In this document: positions 1 through 3,000 of the stretch, one piece after another
Numbering within the stretch: the first letter of the stretch is position 1
Layout of the letters: every line of letters starts with the position of its first letter
Assembly: GCA_046861655.1 (NCBI GenBank)
Contig: JBHIAI010000070.1
Coordinates: 1 to 9,087, forward strand
DNA length: 9,087 nucleotides
Direction of reading: 5' to 3'
Source of the DNA: Fidelibacterota bacterium
GTDB taxonomy: Bacteria; Fidelibacterota; Marinisomatia; Marinisomatales; S15-B10
Made by a program: the position numbers

Positions 1-3000
1 AATCTCGGGAAGGATTCATTCCGCTGCGAATCGCCGTGGATGAGCGGGAAGGGCTCGCCCTGGCACGGGGGGTGGGGGTGGTGAGCATACCGACGGTTGT
101 CTTTTTCGATGGTTCCGGCAAGGTGGTCGGCACGTACGTGGGCTACCAATCGCCCCGGGAAATGGCGAAAATCCTGGAGCGCCACATGCCTGAGGGGACG
201 TCTTAGATGCGGACGGTCCTGGCGGTTGCGGTCCTGCTCGCGAGCCTGAACGCCTGGAATCTAACCCACCTGTCACGGTACAATCCCCCTAATTACGAGC
301 TTTTTGATGTTGAGATCGTGGGGGATTATGCCTTTGTCCCCGCCGGTCTTGGAGGGTTGAATATCCTGGACATTTCCGATCCATCGGACCCTGTTTCTGT
401 GGCAGAGTTTTCGGCGTACGGTTGCGACTACGGCCGGCTCTACGCCTGGCACATAAACGGCAACCATGCCTACGGAAGCGGTCGGGACTGCGGAATCCGG
501 ATTCTGGATGTGTCCGACCCGGTCAATCCGGAATCTGTGGGCAAATACGGATCGTCGGAGTTTTCCTATGAGCACACCGACGGACACTTTTCCTCAAGCG
601 GTGACAGGGTACTGTATGCCGCCATCCACGCCAACGGCGTGGAGGTGATAGATATTTCCGCGCCGGAATCTCCCGAGCACATCACCCGCGTCCCCACTGA
701 GAACGCGTGGGCGGTGGAGGTTTCCCAGGAGGGCGACCTGGTGTACGTTGCTGACGGCGCAGGAGGTCTCAAAATCATCGACGTTTCCTCTCCCTCGACG
801 GCACAGGTGATCGGTGAAGCGGCATCATCGGGCACGGCGAAGGACGTCATACAGCGGGGCAACTTTGTGTTCGTGGCGGTGGGTGGACGGGGCGTGGATA
901 TGTTCGATGTGTCCCAGCCGGACAACCCGGTCCTGGTGGCCAACTACAACACCACAGGATACGCGTCCCGGATCGCTGTGACCGATTCTCTCGTGGCCGT
1001 GTCCGACTGGGACGACGTGGAAGTGCTGAAGTGGGACGACTCCCCCTCTCTGACCCTGGCCGGGTACAAGAATACAGGCGGCAGGGTCATGGCCATCCAT
1101 ATGAAAGATGACGTGGTCTATTCAGCGGAATGGAGTTTCTTCCGGACCTTCAGATTCGGGAAAATAAACGGACCGGATATCGATGCTTCCACCCGGAACA
1201 TCAATCTTCCCCATCTGAGCGACGACAGCTGTCTGGACACGACGTTCATCATCCAGAACACGGGCAATGCCAACCTGAACTTCGAGGATATCGGTGTCGA
1301 CCATTCCGATTATACAACAGGAGTTTTGGCCGATTACGTTCCGCCGGGAGGTTCGGCGGAAATCACCGTCAACTACTGCGCGTCGGCTTCCGACGGATTT
1401 GCCAACCTCAAGATTCGTTCAGACGATCCCGATGAACCTCAGATACCCATAACCCTGGAGGGCAATTCCACCTGGGGACTGGACATAGGTCAGTCGGCCC
1501 CCGATTTCACCCTGTCCTCGGTAAACGGCTTTGAAGAAATGACCCTGAGTGAAGTCCTTTCCAAGACCGATACTGAGGCGGTCCTCATGGCCTTTTTCGC
1601 CACCTGGTGACCGGTTTGTGCTCCGGAGTTTTCGGACCTCGAAATGACTTTCTGGAATGAATACAAGGACCGGGGAGTCGTAGTCCTGGGCCTTTCGTAC
1701 CAGTCGGAATCGACTCTCCAAGCCTTCATCGAAGATCAGGGAATAACCTTTCCCGTTCTGCTGGACGCGGGAAGAGGGGTGTACGGACGGTACAATCTTG
1801 CAGGAGGACAATCGCCGTATCCCCGGGACTTCATTGTGGACAGAAGCATGACTGTCCGGTTTGCCGATACGGAGTACGACCCCGGTACCATGATCACCGT
1901 CATTGAATCCATCCTGGGCGACCCTACTGTGGACTCAAGTGATCCGTCTGCAGATCTTCCCGCAAGCTTTTCCATCCATCGCGTCTATCCCAATCCGTTC
2001 AACGCAGAGGTAACCGTGGAAGTGAACATCCTGGAAGGGCAGGCCGTGGAGCTGGATATCGTGGATATGTCCGGCCGGTGGGTAGATACCCTGTACGCCG
2101 GATGGTTGCCCTCGGGGTTTCACCGGCTCCGCTGGAGTCCTTCCGGGCATTCCACCGGCCGATTGGGCTCAGGCGTCTACCTGGCAGTACTGCGAAGGGA
2201 CAGCCGGTCCTCAGTGGAAAAACTCGTCCTCATAAAGTAGTTTTCTTACCTGCCGCTTTCAAACACGCCCAGACCGTCGTAACTTTAGCCCCGGTTTCGG
2301 TCCATGTTCATGGACGATCCTGCTGTGAGAGCGAGTCGGCACGCCATCCTTCCGGTCTGGATTTCCTCGATTCTGATCTTATTCGGCTCCCTTTTGCCTG
2401 GATTGGACACCTGGCAGCAGGAAGTGGAGTATGAGATCCGGGTCACCCTGAATGACTCCCTTCACACTCTGACGGCTCAGGAAATACTATCCTATACCAA
2501 CCACTCTCCGGACACGTTGACCTTTCTCTGGTTTCATCTTTGGCCCAATGCCTACCGAAACGACAGCACGGCGTTCGCCAGGCAGAAGCTCGAGCATTAT
2601 TCCACCCGTTTTCATTTCTCCGAAGAAGAAGACAGAGGATACATCGACAGCCTCAAGTTCACCATCGATGGAGAAACCGCTTTCTGGGAGTTTCATCCGG
2701 AATGGATCGATGTGGCCAGGGTGGACCTTCCCAGTCCCCTTCTTCCCGGCGAGACCCTCACGGTGGAAACGCCGTTCTTCGTCAAACTGCCGGAGGTCTT
2801 CTCCAGGCTGGGTCACTCCGGAAAGCATTACGAAATCACCCAGTGGTATCCCAAACCGGCCGTTTACGACCGGGAGGGGTGGCACCCCATGCCCTACCTT
2901 GACCAGGGGGAATTCTACAGTGAATTCGGCACCTTTGACGTGTACATCACTCTGCCCCGGGACTACCGGGTCATGGCCACGGGGACCCTGGTGGACGGTG

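Follow-up and report, generated by a model that had tools for sequence, protein, structure and literature searches.

The window, a 9,087-nt contig of a Fidelibacterota bacterium, begins with the 3' part of a gene for an exported thioredoxin, whose TAG stop (204-206) abuts the ATG of a long reading frame (Table 1). The 5' part of the thioredoxin gene lies on contig C188, the reverse complement of which overlaps the window start (71 nt at 95.8%). Gene callers cut the 207..2240 CDS into a 467-aa piece and a piece of ~116-198 aa, a pair that the first-pass annotation had taken for a single gene. Translation of 207-2240(+) bore this out, yielding one 677-codon frame in which the sole internal stop is a TGA at codon 468, set between FFATW and PVCAPE. 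The codon was the same in contigs of three of four public DNA runs, the fourth having no bridging contig; the four runs form a single study, and the source sample is possibly among them.

Table 1. Features of the selenoprotein locus and their positions in the window
Feature	Position	Strand	Basis
Exported thioredoxin, 3' part, WCxxC, DsbD-gamma/Thioredoxin_7-like	3..206	+	Pfam Thioredoxin_2
Shine-Dalgarno-like GAGGGG, putative function	192..197	+	Seen in the sequence, 9 nt 5' of ATG
Whole selenoprotein CDS, 677 aa, predicted Sec at 468	207..2240	+	Translation; terminal stop TAG
Cleavable signal peptide, aa 1-16, no lipobox	207..254	+	Hydrophobicity proxy
Seven-bladed LVIVD beta-propeller, aa 17-320	255..1166	+	Pfam, AlphaFold2 model, conservation
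Ig-like spacer, HYDIN/DUF1573/choice-of-anchor-D-like, aa 323-420	1173..1466	+	Matches below curated cut-offs; model
TlpA/ResA-type thioredoxin fold, aa 421-572	1467..1922	+	Pfam AhpC-TSA/Redoxin (AhpC-TSA 427-552)
In-frame TGA, predicted Sec codon	1608..1610	+	TGA in 30/30 loci, read by script
SECIS-type hairpin TCCGGA-GTT-TTCGGA	1622..1636	+	Synonymous freeze, Sec-vs-Cys contrast, covariation
Flexible Ser/Asp/Pro linker, aa 573-586	1923..1964	+	pLDDT <50 at 573-583
Type-A T9SS-like C-terminal sorting domain, YPNPFN...GVY...KLVLIK	1965..2237	+	TIGR04183 over cut-off; Por_Secre_tail 593-674

A search of the order returned matches at E<=1e-20 in 45 of 151 genomes. All 45 long-form matches that cross codon 468 (42 genomes) carry one TGA, two of them with a TAG in addition, upholding the earlier observation that the long form always has this codon. 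At the level of the phylum, the TGA was present in 61/61 matches crossing the codon, and identity to the query, order-level matches included, was 33-74%. Short matches with only the thioredoxin fold and the C-terminal sorting domain (CTD) were of three kinds (n = 13; 4 with a TGA, 8 without a stop and 1 with a TAG). Purifying selection is as strong 3' of the TGA as 5' of it (pN/pS 0.37 after vs 0.43-0.61 before the codon; 30 loci), and codon 468 aligns with the first Cys of the CxxC motif in ResA, 2ls5 and Cys-form paralogues.

The genome is equipped for selenocysteine (Sec) as previously reported, with tRNA-Sec (C126), SelB (C100) and SelD (C13), the last with an in-frame TGA of its own. SelA was not found in this 92.8% complete assembly. 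Since SelB begins at the very start of its contig and many relatives have selA immediately upstream of selB, the missing SelA is probably an assembly gap; it is present in a genome of the same genus (G057). SelA-family matches, mostly strong, occur in 128/151 relatives, and an alternative route of Sec synthesis was dropped, given how common SelA is in relatives and the position of selB at a contig edge. Cross-tabulation of the genome searches gave a SelB match in 39 of the 42 long-form genomes.

The small hairpin described earlier after the TGA proved to be of the SECIS type. Its stem begins 11 nt 3' of the TGA and its apical loop opens with a G at +18; it has a 6-bp stem and a 3-nt loop (GTT), and in a second clade a 5-bp stem and a 5-nt loop. 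Synonymous codons after the TGA are frozen (P473 CCG, E474 GAG, S476 TCG; each 30/30 loci, spanning a CDS GC of 0.32-0.58), the background reaching at most 0.62 in 56 four- and six-fold columns and 0.90 in 34 two-fold columns. GGAG at +15..18 was found in 42/45 TGA-form vs 3/20 Cys-form thioredoxin loci, and at least 5 of the 6 stem pairs form in 43/45 vs 2/20. Two-sided changes were seen in five of seven hairpin pairs, a sign of covariation, and 84.9% of the cells were paired in the hairpin register vs 20-58% in slid controls, a comparison biased towards the hairpin by the derivation of the structure from the same sequences, which come from related genomes. The core motif has two copies genome-wide, each 3' of the TGA of this gene or of its paralogue on contig C181 (TGA at C181:882, same hairpin), whose N-terminus is probably a fragment at the end of C86, though without exact overlap. 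The hairpin fits the consensus bSECIS model of bacterial UxxC selenoproteins (PMC13188914); an Rfam search of the window gave no match, and the sequence downstream of the SelD TGA does not share the GGAG register.

Read as a true stop, the TGA would make the locus a pseudogene or two separate genes, and the storage of the two halves as separate database records, the absence of SelA from the assembly and the broken copies in some genomes (G011, G294, second copy of G005) are all in line with that. However, the stop would break off the thioredoxin fold at the first of its catalytic residues, every crossing match has the TGA, the hairpin is Sec-specific and the downstream piece lacks a signal peptide; we consider a true stop extremely improbable. 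The invariant TGA, the frozen codons and the Sec-specific, covarying hairpin sustain the selenoprotein reading of the first-pass annotation, and on this sequence evidence TGA468 is almost certainly decoded as selenocysteine.

Database records preserve the split: of the best 120 of 573 matches, 97 end at the TGA. A full-length Cys-form was found neither among these best 120 (7,996 candidates scored, lengths 372-1185) nor among the best 150 of a representative search, which were mostly long LVIVD repeat proteins. The nearest named homologues are labelled Fidelibacterota, Ca. Neomarinimicrobiota or Marinimicrobia, and in one protein, P0201, the propeller is followed directly by the end of the thioredoxin domain, with neither Ig domain nor active site. 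A search of genome contigs for related loci gave mostly CTD-only matches among 80 of 526 confirmed loci, and a genome-wide scan for an in-frame TGA with a nearby Cys yielded too much noise to be of use. Because the records are halved and no Cys-form of the full architecture was found, screens based on Cys homologues or on single domains would miss the whole protein; reading through the TGA corrects a systematic annotation error.

The protein almost certainly leaves the cytoplasm. A hydrophobic 8-residue window precedes the conserved mature start in 137/137 orthologues of sufficient N-terminal length, of which 116 have G/A/S at position -1 and none has a lipobox; this signal-peptide assignment uses a hydrophobicity proxy rather than a dedicated predictor. 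Behind it, the propeller has ten invariant residues across 149 sequences (D34, E122, H141, W168, D213, W268, R293, M295, E308 and W309). In the AlphaFold2 model (mean pLDDT 88.8), WD40-type propellers were the best structural matches of the whole chain (Z up to 34.4), and fold searches with it returned generic propellers alone, with no function indicated. A phosphotriesterase propeller at rank 32 was rejected as indistinguishable from the other propeller matches.

The thioredoxin domain combines U468-P-V-C471 with a conserved S-P-Y/F-P-R-D loop, and both sequence and model point to an extended thioredoxin fold with UxxC and a putative cis-Pro loop. Its best PDB sequence matches are ResA and 2ls5, and its model (pLDDT 93.2) best matches a DsbE-like protein (VIA Z 20.7). 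The curated ResA model is the best subfamily match (64.8 bits vs a cut-off of 170); no curated subfamily cut-off (ResA, DsbE, TlpA) was reached by the domain, and none of the 25/25 thioredoxin domains scanned reached an NCBIfam model at cut-off. As judged by sequence, the enzyme would be TlpA/ResA/DsbE-like in its working and lies outside the named subfamilies.

Where thiol or peroxide chemistry had been proposed, the thiol-disulfide exchange is favoured, dithiol-type chemistry being quite likely the main job of the enzyme, and the peroxide part is weakened. An extracellular selenoperoxidase (Prx/GPx-like) that clears H2O2 or organic peroxides docked in the propeller pocket would suit Pfam AhpC-TSA as the best domain match, the weak matches to PrxU/Bcp models and the structural matches to AhpE (Z 19.5) and Bcp (Z 19.0), with peroxiredoxins ~1-2 Z below the best match. 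We regard it as very unlikely, as the motif is FFATW-U-PVC or FFAPG-U-PVC and not the PxxxTxxU of Sec peroxiredoxins, the ResA/DsbE models outscore the peroxidase models, and a Pro, not an Arg, is kept in the loop before the last strands, which we take to be the thioredoxin cis-Pro position, where peroxiredoxins have Arg.

The CTD scored over the cut-off of TIGR04183 (27.9 vs 23 bits) and just under that of Pfam (26.3 vs 27 bits), and it shares 33% identity with the CTD of a subtilase from the same genome. In the source genome the CTD motif lies within the last 125 aa in 29/29 motif-bearing proteins, and in the family the GxY motif and the terminal K/R motif each occur in 31 of 32 tails. CTD cleavage would be expected in the linker ahead of the domain. 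The genome encodes SprA (725 bits), PorU (672 bits) and three PorV/PorQ-family barrels over cut-off, the PorV equivalog model staying under it (195.5 vs 250), and a PorZ-like match below cut-off (169 vs 260 bits). SprA was present in 50/50 chosen genomes, and cross-tabulation gave a PorU match in 38 of the 42 long-form genomes. No GldM or GldK was found in the source genome, in a search in which no positive-control genome responded and divergent versions are possible; similarly, without a responding positive control, GldL was over cut-off in 0/151 phylum genomes, and GldM_1st and GldN were found in 0/5 genomes. As neither the GldL/M motor nor the GldK/N ring turned up in these searches, the system is at most a reduced T9SS-like one. 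The claim of T9SS export is retained in part: SprA, the PorV family, PorU and an exchange of CTD and dockerin tails speak for it, while the failure to find GldKLMN speaks against it.

This exchange was evident in 50 sequences, which end in a type-A CTD (31), a dockerin (13) or a third module (4), or are cut off (2); with 17/50 members having no type-A CTD, the domain is not obligatory. The tail type changes label five times on a quick tree built without loci L024 and L187 (N-terminal part cut or frameshifted). Genomes with the dockerin form also have cohesin proteins of 1,413-3,057 aa with a terminal CTD. Our best reading offers no way through the outer membrane for a dockerin-tailed copy, which counts against it.

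It is also conceivable that the enzyme works in the periplasm, catalysing the folding of Cys-rich cargo or reducing it, with the CTD or dockerin serving just to tie the enzyme to the export site or to scaffolds ahead of export, or with the motor-less system not exporting the enzyme. Its closest folds are DsbE and ResA, which are periplasmic or extracytoplasmic reductases. A reductant is available in the periplasm, an exported DsbD-gamma-like thioredoxin gene is near or adjacent in 11/39 loci (the neighbour seen in the window recurs in L008-L011 and L178), and GldKLMN were not found in the above searches, which had no responding positive control. In addition, HBP35 of Porphyromonas gingivalis is reported to stand in for DsbA in the periplasm of an E. 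coli dsbA mutant (PMC2907840). On the other hand, the subtilase and an amylase, along with 27 further proteins of this genome, end in the same CTD, both PorU and SprA have been retained, amidase and arylsulfotransferase-like neighbours share dockerin tails with the dockerin-form enzyme, and the genome is already supplied with several TlpA proteins that lack a CTD. We judge a periplasmic site rather unlikely; the protein probably crosses the outer membrane, the genes pointing to no more than a reduced T9SS-like system, and with modest confidence our best reading is a surface thiol-disulfide oxidoreductase.

The neighbourhood bears on a different function. On C188, directly upstream in the source genome, lie genes for a MerTP-like protein, a CopZ N-terminal-like protein, an MTH895-type thioredoxin, a barrel, DUF3179 and a Cys-Cys barrel, and MerT-like, HMA or ArsR genes are near the selenoprotein gene also in G002 and G048. 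The Sec/Cys pair might capture or transfer soft metals or metalloids (Hg, Cu, As) at the surface and pass them to the Cys-Cys barrel, an outer-membrane protein with its Cys-Cys at the N-terminus, to the DUF3179 lipoprotein and to MerT/CopZ, in line with a review that ties many predicted selenoproteins to metal resistance. Yet the Cys-Cys barrel adjoins the gene in just 13/39 wider loci, long-form matches are missing from 12 of the 27 genomes with this barrel, the same cluster occurs in G018 with no selenoprotein gene in it, and the fold is that of a standard dithiol oxidoreductase, making metal transfer improbable. The barrel genomes without the long form and the G018 cluster also led us to discard the Cys-Cys barrel as an obligatory partner. 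Either this barrel or a DUF6029 barrel (C-x4-C) is beside the gene in 18/39 wider loci, never both there, and 21/39 have neither. A dithiol relay that keeps the surface UxxC enzyme reduced, running from a periplasmic thioredoxin/TlpA through one of these outer-membrane barrels, in which a single pair makes up all the cysteines, with motor-less T9SS export, would draw on those 18 loci, and the 21 loci with neither barrel and the 12 barrel genomes without the long form argue against it; we hold it to be improbable. If it is real, DsbD has a counterpart in the outer membrane.

Comparison with known systems delimits what is new. Bacterial UxxC thioredoxin-fold selenoproteins include a PF00578 Prx-like oxidoreductase, a PF08534 redoxin and a cd02966 isomerase-like protein (PMC13188914), which share fold, motif and SelB/SECIS decoding with the window protein. 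Unlike them, it has a signal peptide, LVIVD propeller and Ig domain before the thioredoxin domain, and a surface-sorting tail; a T9SS or LVIVD architecture is absent from the 119 selenoprotein families listed there (PMC13188914). Our literature searches found no description of the family, although BSepDB and the supplements of PMC13188914 may contain these proteins under a generic name, and the BSepDB genome list includes Marinisomatota. HBP35, likened here by domain plan, likewise joins a thioredoxin domain to a type-A CTD, is exported by the T9SS, attached to the surface and reduces insulin disulfides in vitro (PMC2907840, PMC4674972); it differs in its CxxC, the absence of a propeller, hemin binding and a host T9SS complete with motor. 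The NF045500 model (Omp28_seleno/GOS_C) describes another UxxC thioredoxin-like selenoprotein whose end matches dockerins of Marinisomatota proteins, so that it is probably surface-displayed too. This is another family, its 377-position model being too short for propeller, Ig and thioredoxin, and it had no match in the source genome at E<=1e-5, nor among matches of the read-through protein (cut-off 200 bits). Since outer-membrane selenoproteins are moreover in a 2026 catalogue, calling the protein the first T9SS selenoprotein was an overstatement. So was its assignment to abundant ocean bacteria, as the small, ~1 Mb-genome family of the order scored 0/26 for the selenoprotein gene, SelB and PorU.

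A TlpA-like thioredoxin domain is also combined with an NHL beta-propeller in NHLRC2 and SOQ1 (PMC6107167; bioRxiv 10.1101/2024.11.01.621559), and in NHLRC2 the Cys motif sits in the thioredoxin-propeller cleft (PMC6107167). Their thioredoxin domains match our model (Z 15.4 and 17.4), but as an analogy only, as the domain order is reversed, the repeats are NHL, and Ig spacer, Sec and bacterial export tail are lacking. For export, the Bacteroidota T9SS (PMC10202324) shares SprA, PorV-family barrels, PorU and type-A CTD cargo, known here from genes, and differs in the GldL/M motor and GldK/N ring, which were not found in the source genome; the translocon-only set of Melioribacter/Ignavibacterium (PMC11705866) is a comparison system with SprA, PorV-family, PorU and CTD cargo. 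The dockerin form resembles the inferred dockerin/cohesin system of Ca. Stygibacter (PMC8542988), in which signal-peptide enzymes with C-terminal dockerins accompany a very large CTD-ended cohesin scaffold. The docked enzymes there are hydrolases, whereas here a redox selenoenzyme carries a dockerin in some lineages and a CTD in others.

As a surface thiol-disulfide oxidoreductase, the protein would work as follows. SelB acting on the hairpin 11 nt downstream would insert Sec at UGA468, a step with strong sequence support. The signal peptide would then direct the chain to the periplasm, where it may fold, and its CTD would be recognised by the SprA pore, PorV-family shuttles, the PorU sortase and the PorZ-like protein, without recognisable GldKLMN. 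Co-occurrence of these parts suggests that a reduced T9SS-like machine carries it through the outer membrane, removes its CTD and either fixes the enzyme to the cell or lets it go, and the dockerin-tailed form may plug into CTD-bearing cohesin scaffolds. Outside, fold and motif suggest that Sec468 would attack a disulfide or oxidised sulfur of a substrate held in the conserved propeller pocket and that Cys471 would resolve the mixed bond; the most likely job is to reduce or reshuffle the disulfides of small thiols or of proteins outside the cell. We know of no extracellular reductant for a surface thioredoxin. The co-encoded periplasmic thioredoxin might load the enzyme, which ambient thiols or sulfide might then re-reduce outside, or the enzyme might turn over as an isomerase without net electrons.

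These observations point to selenium-based thiol chemistry outside Marinisomatota cells and make the electron source of a surface thioredoxin a testable question. They also provide a defined candidate cargo for asking whether SprA/PorV/PorU export runs without the known motor, and the exchange of CTD and dockerin on one enzyme connects T9SS sorting with cellulosome-like display.

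The window is contig C123 of genome G000. Its 677-codon read-through frame contains a single internal stop, a TGA at codon 468 in the motif FFATW*PVCAPE (see table). A paralogue on contig C181 carries the same TGA and is truncated by the contig start, and contig C86 ends in an N-terminal fragment that matches this truncated copy; the two TGA-bearing paralogues reported by the first-pass annotation were confirmed. The TGA was unchanged in bridging contigs from three public DNA runs, all of a single study labeled hydrothermal vent metagenome, among which the source sample may be. 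Contigs of other sequences in public runs aligned to window positions 1588–1647 solely over the Sec codon and the hairpin that follows it, a confined match that we take as a sign of nucleotide-level constraint there.

Among 151 genomes of the order, 45 gave a match at E ≤ 1e-20, and all 45 long-form matches crossing codon 468 (42 genomes) carried one TGA (two also a TAG), in agreement with the earlier claim for such matches; the 13 short thioredoxin+CTD matches (CTD, type-A T9SS-like C-terminal sorting domain) had a TGA in 4, no stop in 8, and a TAG in 1. In a phylum-wide sample of 251 genomes that overlaps the order sample, 58 matched at E ≤ 1e-40, with a TGA in 61/61 crossing matches. A script reading 30 loci gave the motif as W-U-P-V-C or G-U-P-V-C. 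G011:C18, G294:C94, and G005:C10 hold copies broken by a frameshift or TAG, which are pseudogenes or assembly errors. Databases hold the family in pieces: query coverage was at most 69% in the best 120 matches, 97 of which stop at the TGA position, and the downstream halves have entries of their own, named "redoxin" or "T9SS type A sorting domain" protein. That the TGA is a true stop seems extremely improbable to us. pN/pS was 0.37 over residues 481–570, after the TGA, versus 0.43–0.61 upstream, pointing to downstream constraint as strong as that upstream. No Cys form with the full architecture appeared among the best 120 matches or the best 150 of a representative search. Together, comparison across genomes provides strong evidence that codon 468 is decoded as selenocysteine.

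Most source labels among the matches listed read Marinimicrobia/Fidelibacterota; KSB1 and Zixibacteria appeared once each. Marine collections hold some large clusters (e.g., a Tara cluster of 168 members). Distribution of the long form across the order is patchy; in a family of small (~1 Mb) genomes it was found in 0/26, as were SelB and PorU. The genome of the window (G000) encodes tRNA-Sec, SelB, and a SelD with its own TGA, as previously annotated. SelA was not found in G000, where selB starts at the edge of contig C100; in many relatives selA lies before selB. A SelB match was present in 39/42 long-form genomes, the remaining 3 being 81–95% complete. ARAGORN also reported, at G000:C172:1471–1563, a tRNA of 93 nt whose anticodon is unresolved.

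Next to the TGA, codon usage is frozen. Among 108 conserved columns in 30 sequences with CDS GC contents of 0.32–0.58, only P473 (CCG), E474 (GAG), and S476 (TCG), the TGA aside, used a single codon in 30/30, whereas the top codon elsewhere reached at most 0.62 for four/six-fold residues and 0.90 for two-fold residues. These three codons encode a hairpin with a stem starting 11 nt after the TGA and a loop opening with G at +18, a placement in keeping with the consensus bacterial SECIS quoted in PMC13188914. Among thioredoxin-fold motifs of the loci examined, GGAG at +15 to +18 was present in 42/45 TGA forms versus 3/20 Cys forms; five or more of the 6 stem pairs formed in 43/45 and 2/20, respectively. 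In 17 TGA-form sequences picked for diversity (9 long-form, 8 other thioredoxins), pairing held in 84.9% of cells versus 20–58% for slid controls, which are lenient since these same sequences served to derive the structure; 5/7 pairs showed two-sided changes. The near-invariant, potentially hairpin-forming stretch noted at first pass is borne out by frozen codons, Sec/Cys contrast, and covariation. Short thioredoxin+CTD paralogues (L146, L147, L148, L048, L015, L026, L168) exist in Sec and Cys forms, often adjoining the long form, and hairpin presence in them follows the Sec state. G000 has a second UxxC TlpA-like selenoprotein (L134; C149:5883–6212, +; W-U-S-W-C) that lacks a CTD and in which the stem sequence differs while the GGAG register is unchanged.

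Features of the selenoprotein gene, the genes downstream of it, and the overlapping contig
Feature	Position	Strand	Basis or remark
Whole read-through frame, with LVIVD repeats and then an Ig-like domain	window 207–2240	+	read-through translation, profile search
In-frame TGA	window 1608–1610	+	single internal stop
AhpC-TSA/Redoxin domain	aa 427–552	+	profile search of read-through protein
Por_Secre_tail	aa 593–674	+	profile search of read-through protein
M1 peptidase	window 2304–5276		downstream of selenoprotein gene
145-aa protein, no family match	window 5385–5822		downstream of selenoprotein gene
VKOR-family gene	window 6101–6523		downstream of selenoprotein gene
C188 (L206) gene order			MerTP-like, CopZ-N-like, small thioredoxin, barrel, DUF3179, Cys-Cys barrel, thioredoxin entering window

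The C-terminal tail scored 26.3 as Por_Secre_tail, slightly below the Pfam cut-off of 27, and 27.9 against TIGR04183 (cut-off 23). G000 encodes SprA (725 bits), PorU (672 bits), and three PorV/PorQ-family barrels above cut-off, with a PorZ-like protein below it; in all 29 G000 proteins having an xPNPFN motif, including a subtilase and an amylase, it lies within the last 125 residues. PorU matches occurred in 111/151 order genomes and 38/42 long-form genomes, and SprA in 50/50 chosen genomes (46 with the long-form gene, 4 small genomes without). Those four ~1 Mb genomes (G012, G027, G040, G052) keep a full SprA in a family with no PorU match at E ≤ 1e-80. Searches of G000 turned up neither GldM nor GldK, GldL was above cut-off in 0/151 phylum genomes, and GldM_1st and GldN were found in 0/5 genomes searched, with no positive control giving a signal in any of these searches. 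A review (PMC10202324), in the sections available, gives the T9SS core as motor, ring, and translocon and regards CTD proteins as confined to Bacteroidota; Melioribacter and Ignavibacterium have SprA, PorV, and Plug alone according to excerpts of PMC11705866. With SprA, PorU, and PorV-family barrels encoded and GldK/L/M/N not found in these searches, the predicted export system of G000 is T9SS-like and reduced.

Tails of 50 family sequences comprised 31 type-A CTDs, 13 dockerins, 4 copies of an unnamed duplicated module, and 2 cut off, requiring 5 label changes on a quick tree; Pfam supported the dockerin in 4/5 dockerin-form proteins scanned. The four dockerin-form families had SprA in 16/16 searched genomes, with short PorU-like matches below cut-off, and cohesin matches in 9/9; a CTD ends 6/7 large cohesin proteins scanned, the seventh being cut by its own contig. 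PMC8542988, as excerpted, infers a comparable dockerin/CTD-cohesin arrangement in Ca. Stygibacter. Since CTD and dockerin both tail the same enzyme, these two unrelated display tags would favor a surface location, and the dockerin-tailed members indicate that the CTD is dispensable. Action in the periplasm, ahead of any display, is a reading that we regard as unlikely. In the four dockerin-form families, all of the class (L170–L180, L188, L189, L196–L203), secreted proteins end in dockerins and the type-A CTD ends cohesin proteins of 2,000–3,000 aa. The duplicated module (pattern GWN-L/M-I/V) stands in place of the CTD or ahead of it (L032–L034, L036, L143, L154, L024) and had no Pfam match in two proteins scanned. 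A protein of an unrelated bacterium (L075:4173–5309, +; signal peptide, thioredoxin with U-D-E-C, Ig, type-A CTD) is predicted, with its 6-pair hairpin, to be another CTD-tailed selenoprotein.

An AlphaFold2 model from 68 sequences (pLDDT 88.8, pTM 0.80) placed an N-terminal helix, a seven-bladed propeller (17–320), an Ig sandwich, a thioredoxin fold, a disordered linker, and an Ig-like CTD in this order; fold searches with it returned generic propellers. Every orthologue whose N-terminus is long enough (137/137) has a hydrophobic stretch ahead of the conserved mature start, and none of them has a lipobox. Across 149 orthologues, W268, R293, M295, and W309 do not vary, and D34, E122, H141, W168, D213, and E308 hardly do; by blade position, taken from the secondary-structure string and not coordinates, the conserved propeller residues lie mostly on one face, an arrangement suggestive of a ligand pocket. 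Modeled alone (pLDDT 93.2), the thioredoxin domain had its best structural match in a DsbE-like protein (Z 20.7, rmsd 1.5, 137 aligned), followed by 2ls5 (Z 20.0), AhpE (19.5), Bcp1 (19.0), and ResA (18.9); its top sequence matches were ResA and 2ls5, and no NCBIfam family reached cut-off in 25/25 thioredoxin domains scanned. Peroxidase activity would sit with the AhpE and Bcp1 matches, but Sec peroxiredoxins have PxxxTxxU and this protein has UxxC instead, making a peroxidase very unlikely; of the thiol/peroxide chemistry first proposed, the dithiol side is the better reading. One 1,049-aa member (L145:1434–4580, +) has an extra ~380-aa domain between thioredoxin and CTD, alpha/beta-hydrolase-like by eye.

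Contig C188 and the window start share an overlap of 71 nt (95.8%); one predicted barrel on C188 has an N-terminal Cys-Cys as its sole cysteines. Handling of soft metals, with which the MerTP-like and CopZ-N-like genes of C188 could be aligned, strikes us as quite doubtful. Of 39 wider loci, 13 have a Cys-Cys barrel and 5 have DUF6029 (18 with one or the other); 11 have an exported thioredoxin and 9 a short thioredoxin+CTD. By BLAST, DUF3179 was in 15. A C-x4-C holds the sole cysteines of the DUF6029 neighbors. The Cys-Cys barrel occurs in 27/151 order genomes, and an obligatory link to it was rejected: 12 of those 27 lack a long-form match, and in G018 the cluster is present but the gene is not. 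A DUF3179 lipoprotein and the unannotated predicted outer-membrane Cys-Cys barrel form a recurring pair (G000:C188, L246–L260), often near MerT/CopZ/ArsR, thioredoxin, and a YjeF_N gene. Elsewhere in G000, TlpA, DUF6029, and a short Cys-form thioredoxin+CTD lie in a row (L164; C116:5126–8437, −); DUF6029 proteins have a terminal Phe and the C-x4-C near the C-terminus, and the module flanks the long form in 5 other genomes. G002 and G048 have similar M1 peptidase/145-aa/VKOR-type genes 3′ of the selenoprotein gene.

UxxC families of the redoxin, Prx-like, and isomerase-like types, along with some outer-membrane selenoproteins, are covered by a 119-family catalogue (PMC13188914), whose available text is silent on T9SS and LVIVD; the accessible parts of PMC13326102, PMC13745706, and PMC2398784 do not mention the architecture, the last reporting secreted-protease-like selenoproteins. 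Full-text searches of a largely open-access literature found no description of it; BSepDB, whose genomes include Marinisomatota, may list such proteins under some generic label. The initial claim of a first T9SS-cargo selenoprotein is limited because precedents exist: HBP35, a T9SS-exported surface thioredoxin (excerpts of PMC2907840 and PMC4674972); Omp28_seleno (NF045500), a model that ends in a dockerin-like segment and whose C-terminal part matches dockerins (NF045500 matches L263, L265, L266, L268); and NHLRC2 and SOQ1, which, in the text accessible to us, combine thioredoxin with a propeller. Some NF045500-matching proteins of G156 continue ~200 residues past the dockerin.

On balance, we lean towards a surface-displayed TlpA-type selenoenzyme whose export, substrate, and reductant we infer: the propeller would hold the substrate disulfide, Sec468 would attack it, and Cys471 would resolve the resulting bond. 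The propeller-Ig-thioredoxin-tail selenoprotein architecture is real and, apparently, hitherto undescribed.
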